IMG/VR virus record: IMGVR_UViG_3300015607_000582
Location: 32,001 to 96,000 of that record
Reading direction: 5' to 3' (one strand)
From: a virus
Taxonomy: Duplodnaviria > Caudoviricetes
DNA length: 64,000 nucleotides
The position numbers were made by a program, and so were the translations under genes. The notes below the pieces were generated by a model. The model had not been told where the DNA came from. It did no database searches and saw only the letters and a list, made by a program, of their open reading frames with translations. Shown in pieces: positions 2,834-39,765 of this stretch (its first letter is position 1; each line of letters starts with the position of its first letter).

Positions 2834-5653
2834 CTACGGGTTGAGGTATTGGCGGTCGGTGACCTGCTGGATGGGGAGCGTCAGGCCCGCCGATCCGAGC
2901 ACCTGCCCCTCATACCTTACCGGCAGGTAGTCGAGGTGATGCAGCACGATGTAGACGTTCGTGTCGGAGCCCGTCCACTCGTAGTCGTACGAGAACGACG
3001 TGCCGCTGTTCTCGATGCCAGCGATCTCGACGTCGTCGGCCGTTCGGTACACGCGCACCTCGGTGTCCGCCTGCAGCCCCGTGAGCGTCAGCGCGGCATC
3101 GACCGGATCGAGCGGGTAGCTGACGGCGTTCTGCGCCGCGCTAGTGGTCACGGTGTCGATGCGGATGTACTGGATCGCGTTGGTTGCGGAAGCCTTGTTG
3201 CAGACGGCGCGCACCTTGATCTTGAACCCATCGACCGGATCGGGGTTCGCCTCGAACGGCAGGTGGTTGAAGACCAGCACGCCCGACACGGCTCCGGAGT
3301 TGGCCACGTTGACGGTGACTGCGGTGCCACTGTCGATGCTCGTGACGCGGGCGTTGGTGCCGATGCCGGTGCCGAACACGTAGTCGCCTACCTCGACACC
3401 CGTCGTGGAGGTCATGGTCACGGTCGTTGCTCCGCCCGAGCCGCCCGCGCCTGATCGCTTGTAGGCGAGGTTGTGCCACGACGACTGGAAGCCGTTGCCG
3501 TCGTTGTAGTCGAGCTTGTAGAACAGGTCGTGGTTGTTCGGGTTGGTGCCGGTGAACGTGGGCTGCGTCTGCGTGGCCTGCGAGAACGACGTGTGACCCT
3601 GAATGTAGTAGGGCCACGTCCACTCGATGGCGTCGTTGACCGTGCCCATGTAGAGCGCGCCGGTCGAGGTGAACTTGGGGGTGCCCGCCGCGATCGTGTA
3701 CGCGGAGGCCGACGGCTCAAGAGCGGTCTTCTCGTTCGCCTGAATCACGAGGCGACCGGCGGTGGTGGAGGTGAACGTGTCGAGGAAGTGCGTGCCGTAG
3801 ACGGCCGTCTGGGCAGTCGTGGAGTTCGTCCAGCGACAGCCCTTGCAGATCATGTTCCATGCGGTCAGGGCCTGCGTGTCAGCGCCATCAGTCCAGCACG
3901 ACTCGACGGTCATGCGGTTGTCGGAGTTGACCATCGTGCCGAACGCCGACGTGCGGACGTTGTTGGCATAGACGCGCTGCACCTTGATGTCGGAGTTGAG
4001 GCCGTTTGCCTGCACCAGCACACCACAGGCGTTCGCTGACCCGCAGTCGTACGGGGAGGCTGCCGTGCCGATGTTGCGCACCTTGATGCGCTTGCAGTTG
4101 TTCGACACGTTGACGATGGCGGTGTACGGATGCACGTTCGCCAGACCATCGAAGTTGGCGAAGCCATCCATCGTGATGTCGGTGCAGCCCGTGGTGATGT
4201 CGAAGAAGCTGACGGGGTTGGTAGCTGTGGTGGTCGTCCCCGTCCTGTCCCAGTACGTGGTATTGGTGAACGTCAGGTTCTGGCAGGTCGTGATGAGGGC
4301 GCGGCCATCGCCGACGGCGCAGTTCGTGAATGTGCTGTTCGCCACGCGCGTCAGGCCGAGGCCGACCGGCGTGTTGCCGCTCTTGGGTGATGCGCCTCGG
4401 AACATGCAGTCGACGAAGTCGAATCCGTCCATGTCGGTCATGGACGCGATGATGACGGATGCGGCGACGGTGGGGCGCACGAACTTGCAGCCCGTGATCG
4501 TGCCGCCCGCGAAGCAGGTGGCAATCGTCAATGGCGACCCGACCGCAGCGATGTTCGTAGCTGGCAGGCCGACGTGACAGTTGGTGAGGATGACCTCGGT
4601 CGCGATCTCCGAGAAGCGCAGGTCTTCGAGGAACGCTGAGTTGGTGATGCTCAGGCTGTACGCCTGATTGCAGTTGACGTTGAAGCCCGCGCCACTGACG
4701 CCGTTGATGCTGATCGCGCCCGCATTCGTGGTCGTCAGATCCCAGCGGGTGGCGAGCGTCGCATTGACGATGTTGTTCGTCCATGTCGGCGTGACGGCCG
4801 ACGAGATGATGATGTTGGGGATCCTGATCTTGCAGCCCGAGGAGGGCAAGTAGGCGGCGTCGGTGGGCGTCGTGGTCGATCCGATGCGCAGCAGGCCGGT
4901 GGCACTGATGAAGACCACCTTCGCACGGTCGTCAGTCGTGGTCGCCGGGAAGTTCGTGGTCGTCATCTGCGCGCCGACGTTGGGCCAGAACTCGTACGTG
5001 CCGCTGCCGCTGGATGTCTCGATCCAGACGCCGGGATACTGGTCGCTCACGGGGAGCTGGATCGTCTGGTTGCGCGCACCTGACGTGGTGCTGTCCAGCT
5101 CGAACCAGTCGCCGTTGATGTTGAAGGTGCCGAGGCGGCCGACCGTGATCGTTGAGCCTTCCTCGCCAACGATGTGCAGCCACCCGCGCTTGCCTCCGGT
5201 GGCCGAGTTGACGACGGCCTTGACGACGCCGCCCACCGACAGGTTCTCGTTGTCCTGAAACGTCCCAGTCTTGGAGCGCAGCTTGATGAAGCCGGTGGCG
5301 GGCATCGCGCCGCCTGCGACGCTCGGCGCGACGGCGTAGTCGGTGAAGGTGCCGATGACCTCGCCCGTCGCGCCAGAAGTGTCCCCGGTCAGCGTGGAGC
5401 CGATGGCAGGCACGGTCGAGGTGCCGCCGTCGAAGGGCAGCCACCAGACGGTCGTGCCGTCGATGTTGATCGTGCCGCCGGTCGCCGTCGAGATCGTGAG
5501 GTTGCCGATGACAGCGTTCTGACCGCCCCAGCGCGAATCGCTGTTGATGGTCAGTGTCGCGCCAGAGTCCACGGTGACGTCTTCGCCATCCAACAGGCCG
5601 TTGATGGCGGCGTCATCCATGTTGCGGTTGACGGATACGGTCTGGTTAGCCAT
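2834..5653 (-). CDS. Large virion protein with probable right-handed beta-helix (tail spike/fibre-like)
   Basis: 939 aa, Thr/Gly/Asn-rich with periodic NC/DC/GC beta-helix-like rungs. Confidence 0.7.
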   Translation of the reverse strand: MANQTVSVNRNMDDAAINGLLDGEDVTVDSGATLTINSDSRWGGQNAVIGNLTISTATGGTINIDGTTVWWLPFDGGTSTVPAIGSTLTGDTSGATGEVIGTFTDYAVAPSVAGGAMPATGFIKLRSKTGTFQDNENLSVGGVVKAVVNSATGGKRGWLHIVGEEGSTITVGRLGTFNINGDWFELDSTTSGARNQTIQLPVSDQYPGVWIETSSGSGTYEFWPNVGAQMTTTNFPATTTDDRAKVVFISATGLLRIGSTTTPTDAAYLPSSGCKIRIPNIIISSAVTPTWTNNIVNATLATRWDLTTTNAGAISINGVSGAGFNVNCNQAYSLSITNSAFLEDLRFSEIATEVILTNCHVGLPATNIAAVGSPLTIATCFAGGTITGCKFVRPTVAASVIIASMTDMDGFDFVDCMFRGASPKSGNTPVGLGLTRVANSTFTNCAVGDGRALITTCQNLTFTNTTYWDRTGTTTTATNPVSFFDITTGCTDITMDGFANFDGLANVHPYTAIVNVSNNCKRIKVRNIGTAASPYDCGSANACGVLVQANGLNSDIKVQRVYANNVRTSAFGTMVNSDNRMTVESCWTDGADTQALTAWNMICKGCRWTNSTTAQTAVYGTHFLDTFTSTTAGRLVIQANEKTALEPSASAYTIAAGTPKFTSTGALYMGTVNDAIEWTWPYYIQGHTSFSQATQTQPTFTGTNPNNHDLFYKLDYNDGNGFQSSWHNLAYKRSGAGGSGGATTVTMTSTTGVEVGDYVFGTGIGTNARVTSIDSGTAVTVNVANSGAVSGVLVFNHLPFEANPDPVDGFKIKVRAVCNKASATNAIQYIRIDTVTTSAAQNAVSYPLDPVDAALTLTGLQADTEVRVYRTADDVEIAGIENSGTSFSYDYEWTGSDTNVYIVLHHLDYLPVRYEGQVLGSAGLTLPIQQVTDRQYLNP

Positions 5654-28119: not shown

Positions 28120-28161
28120 TGGTCTGGTCTCCGTTCGAGCTGGACTGGCCTTGCACCAATC

Positions 28162-32581: not shown

Positions 32582-32637
32582 GGTGGTCATCTCCGTTGGT
32601 CGGTCTCCGTTGGGGCCGAAGCGCCCCTGCAGAGATC

Positions 32638-33603: not shown

Positions 33604-33644
33604 GGTGGTCGATCTCCGTTGGTCTTGGGTGGTCTCTGGTTGCA

Positions 33645-33711: not shown

Positions 33712-35496
33712 ATCGCTCTGGAGCGACCAGCTTGAGGTTGTAGTCCAGCACCCGCGCGGGCGTTTCCGTGCCGTCGAACAGAACGAGAACCTCGGGCCAA
33801 ACGCGGTCGTCGTCCCAGTCCAGAGCATGTCCGACGACGGTGCCGACGCGCCCGTTGTAGTAGGCATCACCAGCCTGCAGGACCTCACAGGCACCGACGA
33901 CCCGGTCATCGACGTGATGTCGGTAGTCGTAGTGCATGTCAGTCGCTCTCCTTGCGCTGCCAGATGCGCTCGAACTTGTCAGCAAGCCGGTCGACGGCCG
34001 ACAGGTCCGAGCCCGGAGCCGGGTCGTCGAGGATGGTGCGAAGGGTCGCCACGTCGGTGCGGTCGAGCCGCACTGTGACATCCCAGTCCGCCTGCTTCTT
34101 GGGCTGCGTGCTCATGTCGTCAGCTCCTTGGTCTTGTCGATGGTGTTGTGGATCTCGATCAGGGCTTCGACCCACCGGACGTCGTCGACGTAGCTGTCGC
34201 ATGCGGCGTCGAGAGCGAGCAGCCGAGTCGCCTTGGCCACAGCGCGGACGATAGCCGCGAGGTGCTCGCGCTTGTCGGGGTGATCGCCCGTCGAGCCGGA
34301 CATCACATCCGTCTCGATGGTGCGGGCCACCAGCTCCAGCGCGTTCTCCGCGTAGAGGTAGCACGAAGCCCAAGCTCCACTGCGGTCTCCGTCGTAAAGC
34401 ACGTCCACCCAGCGGGGCGTACCAGTGCCGCTCTCTGCGTACTCGACGTCGCGCCCGTTCGGTGCCGTTCGCATGTCGGCAGTCAGGAAGGTCTCGAAGT
34501 GCTCTGCGCTCATCGCGGTACCTCCAGCAGGTCGACGAGGTCGGCCAGCGAGATGACCACCATGGGGTCGCGCTGGAGGAGCGCCCACTTCTCGGCGTCG
34601 GCGTCGAAGTTCGCGCTCCTGCTCGCGTAGATCCTCCCGGCCTGCGCGCCGACATGCAGATCCATGTCGTACGCGACTGCCTTGAGCTTCGCGAGCAGCG
34701 CGCCGTTGCGCTCCACCCTTCCGCTCTCGCCAGCAGAGGCCGCCATCATGCGTTCACCTCCGTGATGCCCATCTTCTCGGCGAGGGCGACCGACCGCTCG
34801 CTGATGTCCATCATCTCGTTGACGTCGGCGTTCTCCTCGCCCCCGGCGTAGATCGCGGCCGACTGGGTGAAGAGCTGCACCAGCTCGTCGAGGTTGGCGA
34901 GCGTGTCGCTGGCCAGCCCGCTGATGAGGTGCTGGAGGTTGACGGCGTGCTCGCTGCGCTCCGCGATCTCCTCGGGCAGCTCGTCGAGCAGGGCGTCGGC
35001 TGCGCGGACGATGTCGTTGAGGCGGCGGATGGCGATGTCGTTGAGGTTGTTGGTGTCCATGGTGATCGTGCTCCGTTTCGGTGTGTCAGTGGATGGTGTT
35101 GGTGAAGTGTCAGTCGGCAGCGGGCACGACGTGCCAGCGGTTCTTGATCTTCGTCAGCGTGCCGACCAGCTCGCCGGGGAAGTCGTAGCCGTCGTTCCAG
35201 ACGCCCCGCTTGGCGCGGTAGACGTTCACGCCCTCGGAGGGCTTGTCGCCGACGAACACGAGCGGCAGCACATCCTCGAACTGGCCGGTCTCCTCGCACT
35301 TGACGACCTCGCCGGACTCCTCGTAAGCGTCCCACGCCATCGCGATCTGGCGATCCTGAGTCGCCTCGACGCGCGGGTCAATGTTCCAGTGGTTGCTCGG
35401 CTTGTGCGCGAAGGCGAAGGCATGCGCCTTCTGAACCTCACCGTCGAGGATGACGTTGTGGGTGCGCTTGCGGAACGTGTAGATGTAGATGCCCAT
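33710..35496 (-). other. Six small ORFs (33710-33937, 33939-34115, 34112-34513, 34510-34749, 34746-35060, 35110-35496)
   Basis: Gene chain below the class I promoter at 35535. Confidence 0.6.
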
Positions 35497-35534
35497 GGTC
35501 GGTGGTCTCCGTTCAGTGTGGCCTTCTGGTGTCC

Positions 35535-35600
35535 ACTCTACCCGATCCATCGGACAAAGCAACCCACCCGTTCCACAAAAGTTCGCTATTTGCGAGATTT
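35535..35600 (-). promoter_or_regulatory. Class I promoter with palindrome and upstream element
   Basis: TTGCTT-N16-TAGAGT; dyad CCGAT-CC-ATCGG. Confidence 0.75.
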
Positions 35601-36087
35601 ATGCGCGAACAGCCATGGGGAAATCCCATCCATGGATGGCCACAGGACGCCCCACAGCCCGCGCCACCAGCGGGTCGCGACACGAGTAGCCGGGCATGAG
35701 GTTGGTGACCTGCCTGCCGAGCATGAGGCGGCGGTTGACGATGATCGGAGCGAACAGGTTGATGGTCGCTCGCTTCGGCTCACGCGGCACGTTCACCACC
35801 GCAAGCACCTCGACGTCCTCTGCCCTGTCCAGCTCGATCTGCGCCAGCTCCTCGTCGGAGACCTTGACCTCGAAGCTCCAGTGGAACGCCCACGGGATGG
35901 TGACCGGCAACGCGACGCTCGGGGTGTCAGTCGACTGCAGCCACGCGAGCGGACTGTCAGTCCCACCGACGACCACCCAGCTCGTCTCCTCGACGAAGCC
36001 GGGGATCCCGTCGGGGAACTCGATGAAGGAGTCGTCCGGGGCCACGATGGCCCCGTGACGACCCTCCATGCGATGCCGGTCACCCAT
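35599..36087 (-). CDS. fliW: Flagellar assembly factor FliW (CsrA antagonist)
   Basis: IEFPDGIPGF, AWLQS, ALPVTIPWAF, TINLFAPIIVN...GRQV...Y..RDPL all match the FliW family pattern. Confidence 0.85.
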   Translation of the reverse strand: MGDRHRMEGRHGAIVAPDDSFIEFPDGIPGFVEETSWVVVGGTDSPLAWLQSTDTPSVALPVTIPWAFHWSFEVKVSDEELAQIELDRAEDVEVLAVVNVPREPKRATINLFAPIIVNRRLMLGRQVTNLMPGYSCRDPLVARAVGRPVAIHGWDFPMAVRA

Positions 36088-36091
36088 CGTG

Positions 36092-37978
36092 TCAGTCGTC
36101 CATGTCAGTCGGCGGGAACAGCTCGTGGTCAGTCGAGTCGCGGATCACGAACGAGGTGTCACACGCGCCGCCCGCGCAGTCGTCGACCAGCGAGCCGTCC
36201 TCGTACTCGATGTCGCGCCCGGCCACCGTCCACTCGGCGAGCACGTCAGCCATCTCGTCGACCGGGACGTGCTTCATGGGCTCGAAGCTGTCAGCCGTCT
36301 CGCGCGAGCCCTCGCGGTAGAACGTCGTGCCCTTGAGGTGCGGCAGGTACTCCAGCCAGAGGCCGCCCAGCTCCTCCACCGGGAAGTCCTTGGGGAGGTT
36401 GATCGTCTTCGACACGGCGCTGTCGACGTGCTTCTGGACGACGCGCTGCATCTCCATGTGGGCACGCGGCGTGACGTCGTACGCGCCCTCGACCAGCTCG
36501 GGGTGATCCGTGTACTCCTGCGACACCACGAGCGTCTCCGCGATGGTCTCGCGCTGCTTGGCGTCGACCGTACGACGACGGCGGATGTAGACCGGGCTGA
36601 ACACGGGCTCGACGCCGCCAGTGACGCCATGCACCATGGAGGTCGTGCCGGTCGGGGCGACCGTGAGCAGGCAGCAGTTGCGGATGCCGTGCTCCTTGAT
36701 CTTGTTCTTGATGCCACGCTTGAGCGTCTTGGCGAATCCCGACTGCAGGAAGCGCGGGTCGTAGAGGGGGAACGGCCCCTTCTCGATGGCGAGGCTCACC
36801 GAAGCGTCGTAGGCGGTGTTCTTGATGACCGACATGAGCTTGTCGACGAACTCCAGCGCCTCGTCGGACGAGTAGCGCATGCCGAGGTCGAGCAGCATCG
36901 AGTGCAGCCCCATGACGCCCAGACCGATGCGACGCTCCTCGTGCGCCACCTTCTCGTTCTCGGGCAGCGGGTAGTTGGCCACGTCGATGGTGTCGTCGAG
37001 GTAGCGCACGGCCAACCTGACGCTCTCGTCGAGCTTGTCCCAGTCCATCTTGCCGTCGACCACGAAGCGCGGCAGCACGAGCGCACCGAGGCAGCAGTTG
37101 GCGTACGGCGACAGGGGCTGCTCGCCGCACGGGTTCGTGGCCACGAGGTCGCGCACGTAGGCGATGTTGTTCATGCGCTGGACGAGGTGCCAGTTGAGCA
37201 GGCCGGGCTCGCCGTTCCGCCATGCGTTGCCGACGAGCCACTCCCAGAGGCGGGTGGCGTTGATCGTGCGCCCCTCGCGGTCGGGCAGGCCGCCGAAGCG
37301 CAGCGGGATCTCCTCGCCGTTGCGCACCATCTCGACGAACTTCTCCGTCGGCATGTCAGCCGGGATCATCACCGAGATGTTCGCGTTCGCGATCTCGCCC
37401 GTCTTGAGCTTCGCGTCGAGGAACTCCTCGACGTCCGGGTGGTCGATGTTCAGGCAGAACATGAGCGCGGCGCGGCGACCGCCGCCGTCCTTGATCTCCT
37501 CGCCGATGCCGTTGATGACGCGCATCAGCGACACCGCCCCGGTGGCCGTGCCGCCCATGCCGCCGATGGGGTAGCCGCGCGGGCGGACGGGGGAGAAGTT
37601 GAGCCCGACACCGCCGCCGCGAGCCGAGATGGTGGCGACGTCGCCCATCGCCTTGCCCCAGCCCTCGATGGTGTCCTCGGTCGGCGCGACGTAGCAGTTG
37701 CTCGTCTGCTGGATCTTGCGGCCAGCGCCGTACCAGTGGCGACCGCCGGGCATGAAGTAGCTGTCGGCCAGCTCGCGATGGAATCGGTGGAGGTAGACCT
37801 CGGCCTTGCCGTTGTGCTCGGCACGACTGGCGGAGTAGGCGAGGCGGTACGCGCCCTCGCTCCACGTCTCGACCGGGACGCCATCCTCGTCACGCTTGGC
37901 GTACCGCTCTCCGAAGATGGTCTGGCCCAGTCCCTTGGGCTCGAAGGCGGGTGCTGCAGGGGCTACTTCGGTCGTCAC
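36092..37978 (-). CDS. nrdJ: Adenosylcobalamin-dependent (class II) ribonucleotide reductase
   Basis: PGGR, SNCY, GGGVG, RRAALM, TNPCGEQPL, RRIGLGVMG, VAPTGT, SKTIN, C-terminal CAGGAC. No nrdB nearby. GTG start at 37978 with GAGGAG RBS. Confidence 0.9.
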   Translation of the reverse strand: MTTEVAPAAPAFEPKGLGQTIFGERYAKRDEDGVPVETWSEGAYRLAYSASRAEHNGKAEVYLHRFHRELADSYFMPGGRHWYGAGRKIQQTSNCYVAPTEDTIEGWGKAMGDVATISARGGGVGLNFSPVRPRGYPIGGMGGTATGAVSLMRVINGIGEEIKDGGGRRAALMFCLNIDHPDVEEFLDAKLKTGEIANANISVMIPADMPTEKFVEMVRNGEEIPLRFGGLPDREGRTINATRLWEWLVGNAWRNGEPGLLNWHLVQRMNNIAYVRDLVATNPCGEQPLSPYANCCLGALVLPRFVVDGKMDWDKLDESVRLAVRYLDDTIDVANYPLPENEKVAHEERRIGLGVMGLHSMLLDLGMRYSSDEALEFVDKLMSVIKNTAYDASVSLAIEKGPFPLYDPRFLQSGFAKTLKRGIKNKIKEHGIRNCCLLTVAPTGTTSMVHGVTGGVEPVFSPVYIRRRRTVDAKQRETIAETLVVSQEYTDHPELVEGAYDVTPRAHMEMQRVVQKHVDSAVSKTINLPKDFPVEELGGLWLEYLPHLKGTTFYREGSRETADSFEPMKHVPVDEMADVLAEWTVAGRDIEYEDGSLVDDCAGGACDTSFVIRDSTDHELFPPTDMDD

Positions 37979-38143
37979 TTGACTCTCTCCTCGTTGGTCA
38001 TTCGGGGGCATGTAAAGGGGCGAGCAGCCCACTGGCGAACCAGCGGGCGGCACCATTTAGGGGGCCGTGCTGCGAGGCAAAATCGGACACCTCGCGAAAG
38101 TCCCTGCTAGTGAGTTTCGCTGACGCCGACGGCCACGGAAGAG

Positions 38144-38169
38144 ATGCTACTGACCGCGTCGGACGAACC
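38144..38169 (-). promoter_or_regulatory. Class II promoter GGTTCGTCCG-N10-TAGCAT (nrdJ-fliW operon)
   Basis: Motif copy directly after a terminator. Confidence 0.8.
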
Positions 38170-38185
38170 TCTCGACTGACATGCA

Positions 38186-38217
38186 AAAGGGGCTGGCCGC
38201 GAGTGCGACCAGCCCCT
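38186..38217 (-). terminator. Rho-independent terminator
   Basis: AGGGGCTGGTCGC-ACTC-GCGGCCAGCCCCT followed by TTT. Confidence 0.75.
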
Positions 38218-38351
38218 GCCCCGGACGACCAACGTCGGGATGCAGTAGCCCGGCAGGCCATACGGCGAACGGAGGAACACCGACCTGCCGGGCGACGAGG
38301 GGAGACGCCGACCAAAGCATCTCTCACCCTCGCCCCGCGCTCTAGGCGCGG
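38186..38351 (-). ncRNA. Putative multi-hairpin small RNA with anti-RBS loops
   Basis: Four hairpins plus terminator; G-U pairs favour the minus strand; loops TTTGGTCG, TTCCTCCGTT and TTGGT. Confidence 0.6.
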
Positions 38352-38355
38352 AAAC

Positions 38356-39268
38356 TCACTTGGCGATGTACTGGAGCACGGCGAACATCGTCGCGCCGGT
38401 CAGCACGCCGATGCCGAAGAGGTTGACGCCAGCGGCAGCCAGCATCGACCAGCTCGGGCGCGTGACCTGCGTGACGACCAGCTCTCCGGGGAGGAGCGGG
38501 TTGTCGAGCCAGTCGCGCTTGTGCGCCTCGAACTCCTCCGGGGTCATCAGCCGCTTGGCCGTCTCGTCGACGTAGTCGAGCGGCGACTTGCCGGGCTCGG
38601 TCTCGCCGAGCGAGGCAGCGCCCACGCTCGTCTCCTCCGCGCCGTTGTCGTGCTGCGTCACGATGCGCGACGTCGGGTCGGGGCGACGGTGTGCGGGCTC
38701 GGTGGCGTTGACGCGCTCGACGTTCGCTGGCGCAGTCCACGCCCCGTTGTCGGCCGGTGCGATGACCGGCTCGGTGTCCTTGGTGGTGTCGTTGACGCTC
38801 TGGCTCATGAGACGCCTCCCTGCCGCACTCCCTGCGGCATCGCGATGTTCGTACCGGGCAGTGCGATGCCCGAGTTCTGGGCCCTCACCTGCGCGATCTG
38901 CTCGTACTCGTTCTGCATGGCGGGGCGGAACAGGGTGACCTCGTCGATCCTGACGCCCCACTGCTTCCCGGTGACCGCATCCGTGACCTGCACGAAGCGG
39001 ACGTCGCGATCCGACATGCGGTGCGCGAGGTCGTCGAACGAATCGCTGACCGCCATCAGCGACTGGCCGAGCTGGATCATGGAGATGTCGTTCATGCAGC
39101 GACCCCCATGACCTTGCCGGTGGCCACGTCGAGCGCCGTCCGGCGCATCCCGAGAGCGGCCACGGCCTGCAGGAATGCAGTGCGGTCGTCGTCGATGATG
39201 GCCTTGAGCAGCACGTCCACCGATTCGGTGTACGAGCCCACTGCTTCGATCAGTTCGTTCAGGTCCAT
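38356..39268 (-). other. Three ORFs (38356-38808 with C-terminal TM, 38805-39095, 39092-39268)
   Basis: Operon below the class II promoter at 39297, ending in the putative sRNA. Confidence 0.65.
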
Positions 39269-39296
39269 TCGGCCCCTCCGTTAGTTGACTCCCGAC

Positions 39297-39322
39297 AGCG
39301 TACCGGACGCGCCGGACGAACC
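39297..39322 (-). promoter_or_regulatory. Class II promoter GGTTCGTCCG-N10-TACGCT within a 15-bp inverted repeat
   Basis: Inverted-repeat arms at 39296-39310 and 39335-39349. Confidence 0.8.
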
Positions 39323-39725: not shown

Positions 39726-39765
39726 GGTCGGTCTCCGTTTCGATTCAGGGTGGCTACTTGAGCAT

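Follow-up and report, generated by a model that had tools for sequence, protein, structure and literature searches.

In Cluster K mycobacteriophages, a 13-nt start-associated sequence (SAS), GGGATAGGAGCCC, is found at the ribosome site of 13-19 non-structural genes, where it sits 3-9 nt before the start codon and extends the Shine-Dalgarno core, and one copy per genome is reversed (Pope et al., 2011; PMC3203893). In many cases, an extended start-associated sequence (ESAS), in which a SigA-like promoter is accompanied by an inverted repeat, stands ahead of the SAS, and the role of the SAS was left open in 2011 (PMC3203893). It was still termed ill-defined in 2024-2025, and the papers on the Cluster K SAS give no function for it and mention no RNA. 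Here, we analyse a folded intergenic element from an uncultured phage (IMG/VR record IMGVR_UViG_3300015607_000582), in which the loop of one hairpin, H3, is complementary to AACGGAG, a motif present at the ribosome sites of a subset of the genes of this phage. The stretch that was studied, hereafter the window, comprises 64,000 nucleotides (32001-96000) of one virus contig, which is 142,928 bp long and has a G+C content of 65%; the element lies on the minus strand of the window.

The AACGGAG motif has the properties of a SAS-type start-motif system, namely a single reversed copy, one orientation and enrichment at the starts of a gene subset, and it is analogous, not homologous, to GGGATAGGAGCCC. 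In both cases, a phage-specific motif extends the Shine-Dalgarno core, and the counterpart of the ESAS in the window is a promoter cassette, called class I, with GCAAC..GTTGC and CGAT..ATCG dyads. The two systems differ in the length of the motif (13 nt for the SAS, 7-8 nt for AACGGAG(G)), in the phages that carry them (temperate siphoviruses of Mycobacterium versus an uncultured 143-kb phage), and in the place of the hairpin, which in Cluster K has its own large intergenic gap after a terminator, whereas in the window it belongs to the 3' untranslated region (UTR) of an operon.

Loop complementarity to a ribosome-binding site is also known from the c4 RNA of phages P1 and P7, which is phage-encoded, arises from a longer transcript, and blocks translation around that site (PMC12197685). 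The first-pass annotation of the window had overlooked this RNA, and its statement that no such arrangement had been described in a phage was therefore too strong. c4 nevertheless lies upstream of a single target (icd-ant), in the same operon, and acts in temperate-phage immunity, whereas the window element lies at the 3' end of an operon and has 7-14 dispersed putative leaders; there is no sequence or Rfam relation between them. Pairing of c4 uses two loops, a' and b'.

Outside phages, RNAIII of Staphylococcus aureus, RsaE and the actinobacterial 6C RNA expose C/U-rich hairpin loops as anti-Shine-Dalgarno seeds that act on several mRNAs without long duplexes. Such RNAIII-type small RNAs (sRNAs) are host-encoded, with their own promoters, a UCCC seed and experimentally verified targets, whereas the window element has the loop sequence CCUCCGUU, a location in a 3' UTR and predicted targets. 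It is also like the 3' UTR-derived sRNAs of the CpxQ, SroC and DapZ type, which are enterobacterial and Hfq-dependent, share the terminator of an mRNA and need no promoter of their own, and like the OxyS-fhlA pair, where two separate loops contact two nearby target sites: the window element, too, shares an mRNA terminator and offers two loops. The task proposed for it, post-transcriptional shut-off of early mRNAs via their ribosome sites, is shared by RegB and RegA of phage T4, both of which are proteins. The target of RegB cleavage is GGAG within the Shine-Dalgarno sequences of early genes (PMC3014915). No RegA or RegB homologue came to light in the present analysis, in which no search was aimed at them.

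The folded element and its relatives

Folding of the minus strand of positions 38170-38360 yielded four hairpins (H1-H4) followed by a terminator (Table 1), with a minimum free energy of -111.5 kcal/mol and a z-score of -5.9, and none of 200 dinucleotide shuffles was as stable. The plus strand of the same region gave -92.9 kcal/mol (z = -4.9), and at least five G-U pairs exist on the minus strand only. The minus-strand fold put forward in the first-pass annotation was thus recovered with all its coordinates and sequences, together with its strand-specific G-U pairs and the exact match of the H3 loop UUCCUCCGUU to the complement of the leader sequence AACGGAGGAA. The last hairpin has a G+C-rich stem with a U-tract behind it and closes a transcription unit, as intrinsic (Rho-independent) terminators do; the U-tract is weaker in two related contigs (L009 and L046, see below), and a simple terminator scanner did not list the window terminator. 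The loops of H2 and H3 are predicted to be unpaired with a probability of 0.9-1.0 in all three lineages where the element is complete, and TTTGGTC occurs only once on the whole minus strand, in H2.

No second copy of the element is present in the genome, and Rfam covariance models gave no match at gathering score for the window, L009 or L046, with only noise at E-values up to 10, cobalamin and other riboswitches included. A small open reading frame inside the element was considered and rejected: its ATG, in H2, is absent from the relatives, and there is a 1-nt indel, from which we conclude that the element is non-coding.

Searches of GenBank phages, by DNA or by neighbouring proteins, returned no relatives, IMG/VR scans with the upstream protein family returned nothing, and when IMG/VR, the JGI metagenomes and the genomes of GTDB were scanned for the loop motifs, only chance matches in coding DNA were returned. 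A route guided by the downstream ribonucleotide reductase (RNR) was rejected, because its homologues (60-82% identity) lie in unrelated phages that lack the element. Relatives were found instead via the 150-aa protein encoded upstream of the element, in the Logan contigs L009-L012 (57% protein identity), where the genes, RNR and FliW among them, follow one another in the same order; L046 (53%), L047 (41%) and L048 (43%) were subsequently added by a full HMMER search.

H1-H3 share 84-90% nucleotide identity with L009, against some 55-80% for the neighbouring genes, and H4 is deleted there; both strands of the L009 region fold well (z about -6). Eleven stem pairs vary between the two sequences, eight of them by one-sided wobble changes that maintain pairing on the minus strand only, one by a compensatory change, and two by loss of the pair. 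L046 is far more diverged (55% G+C) and lacks H1, but H2 and H3 are retained, as are a small hairpin and the terminator, and behind them stands a class II promoter, the family to which the middle promoters of the window belong. In L047, H1 is a different hairpin, H2 comes next, and H3 is cut off by the end of the contig. Across these lineages, nine compensatory pairs were found in H2, H3 and the terminator: three in the outer stem of H3 (97% paired), two in the inner stem of H2, and four in the terminator stem (100% paired). The H2 loop UUGGUC and its apical context GCUUUGGUCGGCG are unchanged across four lineages, and the H3 loop CCUCCGUU and CCUCCGUUCGCC across three, variation in the H3 loop being limited to its 5' side (U/C changes or one added C). 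H1 and H4 are not conserved among the lineages.

Covarying stems, fixed loops and the non-coding character of the element together argue that it is a real structured RNA, apparently undescribed until now, in which the loop sequences, and not the fold alone, are under selection. A conserved structure with an accessible, conserved seed, as expected of a base-pairing regulatory RNA, is present in three to four lineages. A class II promoter conserved between the terminator and the RNR gene places the element in the upstream middle transcript and not in the RNR leader; at the other end of that transcript, the promoter at 39321-39297, to which the first-pass annotation had assigned the operon, is real and one of about 16 copies. 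The element is a conserved non-coding structured module that a middle (class II) operon carries in its 3' UTR and that finishes with an intrinsic terminator.

Some further features of the hairpins were observed. H4 (CCCGACGUUGGUCGUCCGGGG, 38219-38239) is complementary at 16 of 19 positions to nucleotides -30 to -13 of the RNR leader (CCCCGAAUGACCAACGAGG, 37991-38009), and no start region gave a better single interaction with the element (duplex energy -26.7, total -11); both H4 and its partner sequence are missing in L009, and the pairing could count only in transcripts that read through the terminator. The H3 loop GTTCCTCCG (38270-38278) and H4 GGTCGTCCG (38222-38230) each differ by one mismatch from the class II promoter box GTTCGTCCG, a true copy of which adjoins them at 38160-38168; this likeness fades in the relatives and is therefore probably due to chance. 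In L046, where H4 is folded differently, a second copy of CUUUGGUCGG lies inside a stem, forming a small hairpin with GGCCAAGG (1330-1360) that is followed by a perfect AAGGAGG; with other fold boundaries, the H3 loop pairs with that G-rich stretch, a possible alternative structure.

Complementarity to the AACGGAG ribosome sites

The class I cassette is a 75-nt sequence (AGCGAACTTTTGTGCAAC..GGGGTTGC..CGAT..ATCGGGTAGAGT) present in seven copies in the genome, in which a SigA/sigma-70-like promoter is combined with dyads, and about 25-30 nt past each of the seven copies stand AACGGAG, an A/C-rich spacer and ATG. AAC is the commonest triplet before GGAG ribosome sites (12 of 84 predicted starts, 14%), while it precedes 1.5% of all genomic GGAG. 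Start-associated copies of AACGGAG number about 13-14, and the leaders listed in the first-pass annotation are all present. H3 is the only intergenic sense-strand complement of AACGGAG that is not explained by opposite-strand leaders. The motif persists in the relatives: in the 12.5 kb of L009, AACGGAG serves as a ribosome site six times, always at a gene start, and the only CTCCGTT is that of the H3 loop, while the homologous operon of L046 carries AACGGAGG at its first cistron, after a class II promoter. CCUCCGUU and AACGGAG are both constant across the lineages. GACCA(A), the complement of the H2 loop, adjoins the motif in about nine of the 14 AACGGAG leaders, including every one of the seven class I leaders, and it is found in 18% of all start regions.

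Within the class I cassettes, a GCAAC-N6/7-GTTGC inverted repeat lies over the -35 region and CGAT-NN-ATCG in the spacer. These dyads look like operators for a repressor, and the layout of the cassette resembles the ESAS of Cluster K phages.

Complementarity was compared with chance over the start regions, with gene starts taken from a crude custom caller and interactions scored in the manner of IntaRNA, as duplex energy plus opening costs. The H3 loop segment finds a perfect Watson-Crick complement of at least 7 nt in 18 of 157 start regions (p = 0.008, 20,000 composition-matched shuffles) and of at least 8 nt in nine of them (p = 0.005, same number of shuffles). Matches to H3 and H2 coincide in 11 start regions (p = 0.0016). 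AACGGAG leaders make up eight of the 13 top-ranked start regions for the element, and on mean energy over the AACGGAG set it was equalled by one of 21 random segments.

A similar arrangement was recovered in Cluster K. The genome of Anaya (L049, JF704106) contains 16 forward SAS copies and a single reversed copy, located in the 385-nt gap between gp96 and gp97. Read on the gene-sense strand, that copy folds as the apical loop, of 10 nt (CCUCCUAUCC), in a long hairpin (34790-34930; z of the region -4.7). Conservation of this hairpin region extends over 145 Cluster K records, in most of which it carries no annotation. In a six-phage alignment analysed with RNAalifold, both hairpins of the region are kept, with seven compensatory pairs, and the CCUCCUAUCC loop is invariant in four of the six phages, being altered in Amohnition (CCUCCUUCCCC) and replaced in the K3 phage Keshu. 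[quoted passage not shown] One design is hence found in unrelated phage groups, consisting of an extended ribosome-site tag on early or non-structural genes and a single antisense copy that a later transcript exposes in the loop of a conserved hairpin. Its recurrence in Cluster K with an unrelated motif raises our confidence that the complementarity in the window is functional.

Proposed antisense regulation and its alternatives

The reading that we favour from these sequence comparisons, with a probability of roughly 0.5, is that the element is an antisense riboregulator whose H3 loop, aided by H2 or H4, would occlude AACGGAG ribosome sites. The H3 loop CCUCCGUU would pair with the AACGGAG(G) context of the seven class I cassettes and of a few other genes, the first cistron of its own operon included, while the H2 loop UUGGUC (and H4 where present) would make a second contact with GACCA(A) beside the class I ribosome sites. 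Such pairing would block the 30S binding site, and with the onset of middle transcription, translation of the early leader regulon would be turned down. We infer from this reading that the RNA, either intact or after processing, would accumulate, and that its pairing, in trans or else in cis to the leader of its own operon, would be repressive. Shut-off extending to the whole early regulon is a more tentative part of this reading. A possible generalisation, put forward with the same reserve, is that some phages use an RNA temporal switch, in which a hairpin loop of a later transcript, antisense to an extended Shine-Dalgarno motif (AACGGAG or the Cluster K SAS), silences early, non-structural genes.

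Several results weigh against riboregulation. The complementarity was noticed post hoc and its statistics are post hoc as well, the known lineages amount to three full and two partial ones, and comparison of the window with its relatives revealed no conserved promoter upstream of H1. The best total energies, those for the AACGGAG leaders, are only -7 to -9.4 kcal/mol. Among 21 random 177-nt sense segments, between 7 and 49 start regions reached -7 kcal/mol or lower, compared with 14 for the element, and all but two of the segments had more; in 65% of trials, the duplex energies of composition-matched shuffled loops equalled or surpassed those of the real loops. The first-pass annotation had proposed that these leaders should rank top among predicted targets, and that pairing no better than to other GGAG ribosome sites would speak against its proposal: the ranking held for the eight leaders among the best 13, but in terms of energy the controls matched them. 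Since C/U-rich loops pair well with purine-rich ribosome sites in any order in such a G+C-rich genome, the case rests on contiguous seeds and conservation, not on thermodynamics. Likewise, of the two flanking loops suggested to pair with CGACCAA, that of H2 is present and conserved, but its match is weak when taken alone (p = 0.07, with a range of 0.07-0.15), and H4 is not conserved; in L009, moreover, GACCA follows AACGGAG in only two of six leaders. Covariation between seed and target was not found, the single loop change (U to C, in L009) being unmirrored in the L009 leaders. Nor is AACGGAG confined to early genes, as had been supposed, since two class II first cistrons, including that of the element's own operon, and a late polyprotein gene carry it. 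Finally, in the Cluster K phage Keshu (K3), the homologous hairpin has no antisense loop although K3 phages have the SAS, which implies that an antisense loop is not indispensable for such start motifs.

The main rival, possible but on balance doubtful, is a protein-recognised 3'-end module, whose hairpins and terminator would end, protect or process the middle mRNA, for instance via cleavage of the RNase III type or another kind or by shielding from 3' exonucleases, or bind a phage or host RNA-binding protein such as an antitermination or translational regulator; the invariant loops would then be contacts for the protein, and the match to the leaders coincidental. The position right after a stop codon and right before the next promoter in all lineages, the covarying terminator hairpin, the lack of any promoter found for the element itself and the unremarkable hybridisation energies to start regions are all in line with such a module, and invariant loops are equally expected of a protein site. 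The long bipartite stems (16 bp with bulges) are also like known processing sites; the RNase III sites of T7 are long bipartite bulged stems resembling those of the element. What a 3'-end module does not predict is an H3 loop that is the exact complement of the most enriched ribosome-site context, or the recurrence in Cluster K with a different motif. Plain terminators and stabilisers, besides, seldom hold a loop sequence across lineages at 40-57% protein identity, and no protein emerged as a candidate for binding, the 150-aa product of the neighbouring gene looking membrane-anchored. An unlikely variant of base pairing is that the H3 loop acts in cis on the first-cistron AACGGAG(G) of its own mRNA, for autoregulation or mRNA circularisation. 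The transcript of the element begins with such a ribosome site in all three full lineages: AACGGAGGGG at 39282 in the window forms eight Watson-Crick and two G-U pairs with the loop, L046 has AACGGAGG after its class II promoter, and the run of L009 genes leading up to the element starts from a class I promoter, with its AACGGAG leader at 4551. AACGGAG is, however, common enough (14% of GGAG sites) for this to be coincidence, and the window and L046, having homologous operons, do not count as independent cases; once target structure is counted, the window's own leader falls outside the 40 best start regions, and GACCA(A), the partner of the H2 loop, is absent from the own-operon leaders.

A role at the DNA level, as a replication origin or priming signal, as packaging or protein-binding inverted repeats, or as decoys of the class II box, is very unlikely. 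G+C-rich inverted repeats are densely clustered in this large gap between genes, each of the two strands folds well (with nearly the same z-score in L009), and the one-mismatch box copies in the H3 loop and H4 lie beside a true box, but eight one-sided substitutions keep G-U wobbles that exist on the transcribed strand only. The box likeness decays to two mismatches in L009 and is interrupted by an insertion in L046, one-mismatch matches are common (33 expected in the window), and the spacing to the -10 element is wrong. Control of read-through into the RNR gene by a riboswitch or attenuator was rejected as highly improbable. A structured RNA with a terminator upstream of nrd would invite this explanation, as nrd genes are often under RNA or NrdR control, and H4 pairs with the RNR leader at 16 of 19 positions; the class II promoter that intervenes between terminator and RNR in all lineages nevertheless gives RNR its own transcript, the RNR leader has no significant structure, no Rfam match, cobalamin included, was obtained at E-values up to 10, and L009 has neither H4 nor its partner sequence. 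Riboregulation by the H3 loop remains the reading we prefer.

Genomic setting and significance

Nearly all genes of the window lie on the minus strand in the GC3-based gene scan, and the element sits inside a 377-nt gap with the 150-aa gene upstream and the RNR gene downstream. The coordinates of these features are collected in Table 1.

Table 1. Position of the element, its candidate target leaders and the surrounding genes and promoters (window coordinates unless stated otherwise).
Feature	Position	Strand	Remarks
H1, CCGCGC-CUAGA-GCGCGG	38335..38351	-	identical in L009; different 7-bp hairpin in L047; absent from L046
H2, 8+8 bp, apical loop UUGGUC (38315-38310)	38294..38334	-	apical GCUUUGGUCGGCG invariant in 4 lineages; 2 compensatory pairs in inner stem
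H3, 12+4 bp, 10-nt loop UUCCUCCGUU (38277-38268)	38248..38293	-	3 compensatory pairs in outer stem
H4, small hairpin, loop UUGGU (38232-38228)	38219..38239	-	deleted in L009
Intrinsic-terminator-like hairpin (12-13 bp; 38217-38189), then UUUU	38185..38217	-	100% paired in 3 lineages; 4 compensatory pairs
Class I cassettes, window copies	28169, 32645, 33652, 35542, 39774	-	
Class I cassettes, genome copies (genome coordinates)	8762, 9999	+	
AACGGAG leader of 121-aa gene	39733..39739	-	class I -10 GGTAGAGT at 39774-39767; then ACC-GACCATG
AACGGAG leader	35507..35513	-	behind class I promoter 35542; then ACCACC-GACCATG
AACGGAG leader	33614..33620	-	behind class I promoter 33652; GACCA before, ATC-GACCACCATG after
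Double leader AACGGAG-ACCGACC-AACGGAG	32591..32611	-	behind class I promoter 32645
AACGGAG leader	28129..28135	-	behind class I promoter 28169; then ACCA-GACCAATG
Class II promoter of the element's operon	39297..39321	-	first-cistron leader AACGGAGGGG (39282-39273)
Gene for 150-aa protein	38356..38808	-	no family match; C-terminal hydrophobic tail; last in class II operon (58, 96, 150 aa)
Class II (middle) promoter of RNR operon, GGTTCGTCCGACG..TAGCAT	38144..38169	-	directly after terminator; kept in L009 and L046
RNR gene	36092..37978	-	GTG start at 37978; ribosome site GAGGAGAG; 155-nt leader
FliW homologue, full-length	35599-36087		directly after RNR gene; Pfam E-value 4e-30; kept in L009

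For the RNR gene, the GTG start with GAGGAGAG was preferred over an ATG at 38056, which has no ribosome site; neither of two z-scores for the resulting leader (-1.4 and +1.7) indicates significant structure. Two more blocks upstream of RNR are conserved in three lineages, TAGCAGGGACTTTCGC (38094-38109) and CCCTAAATGGTG (38033-38045), the second of which fits CTAA-N4-YG. Many of the closest metagenomic RNR homologues (P0004, P0005, P0007, P0011 and others) carry inteins (Intein_splicing, LAGLIDADG), whereas the RNR of the window has none. Concerning the FliW homologue, AACGGAG fits the ANGGA core of CsrA sites, and a link between the phage FliW, a host CsrA and the leaders is conceivable. The class II promoter family (GGTTCGTCCGRCG-N7-TANNNT, about 16 sense-strand copies) is kept in all related lineages, often right behind a stop codon (about 6893-6920 in L009, 356 and 1416 in L046, 583 in L048). 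ARAGORN found no tRNA or tmRNA gene in the window.

To our knowledge, control of this kind in phage development has so far been described mainly for proteins (T4 RegA and RegB) or for single-target immunity RNAs (c4, sar, OOP). If riboregulation by the H3 loop is correct, a lytic-type phage would time its expression by a regulon-wide antisense RNA built into the 3' end of an mRNA, an RNA counterpart of T4 RegA/RegB, and the targeting of a dispersed leader regulon from such a position would still be new, despite c4. It would also explain the purpose of start-associated sequences, including the lone reversed SAS copy of Cluster K, previously unexplained. Cluster K phages are culturable, amenable to genetics by bacteriophage recombineering of electroporated DNA (BRED) and covered by published RNA-seq, and some are used therapeutically, which makes the idea directly testable there. 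Even if the pairing fails, the element is a new conserved family of structured RNA, with fixed loops that need an explanation.

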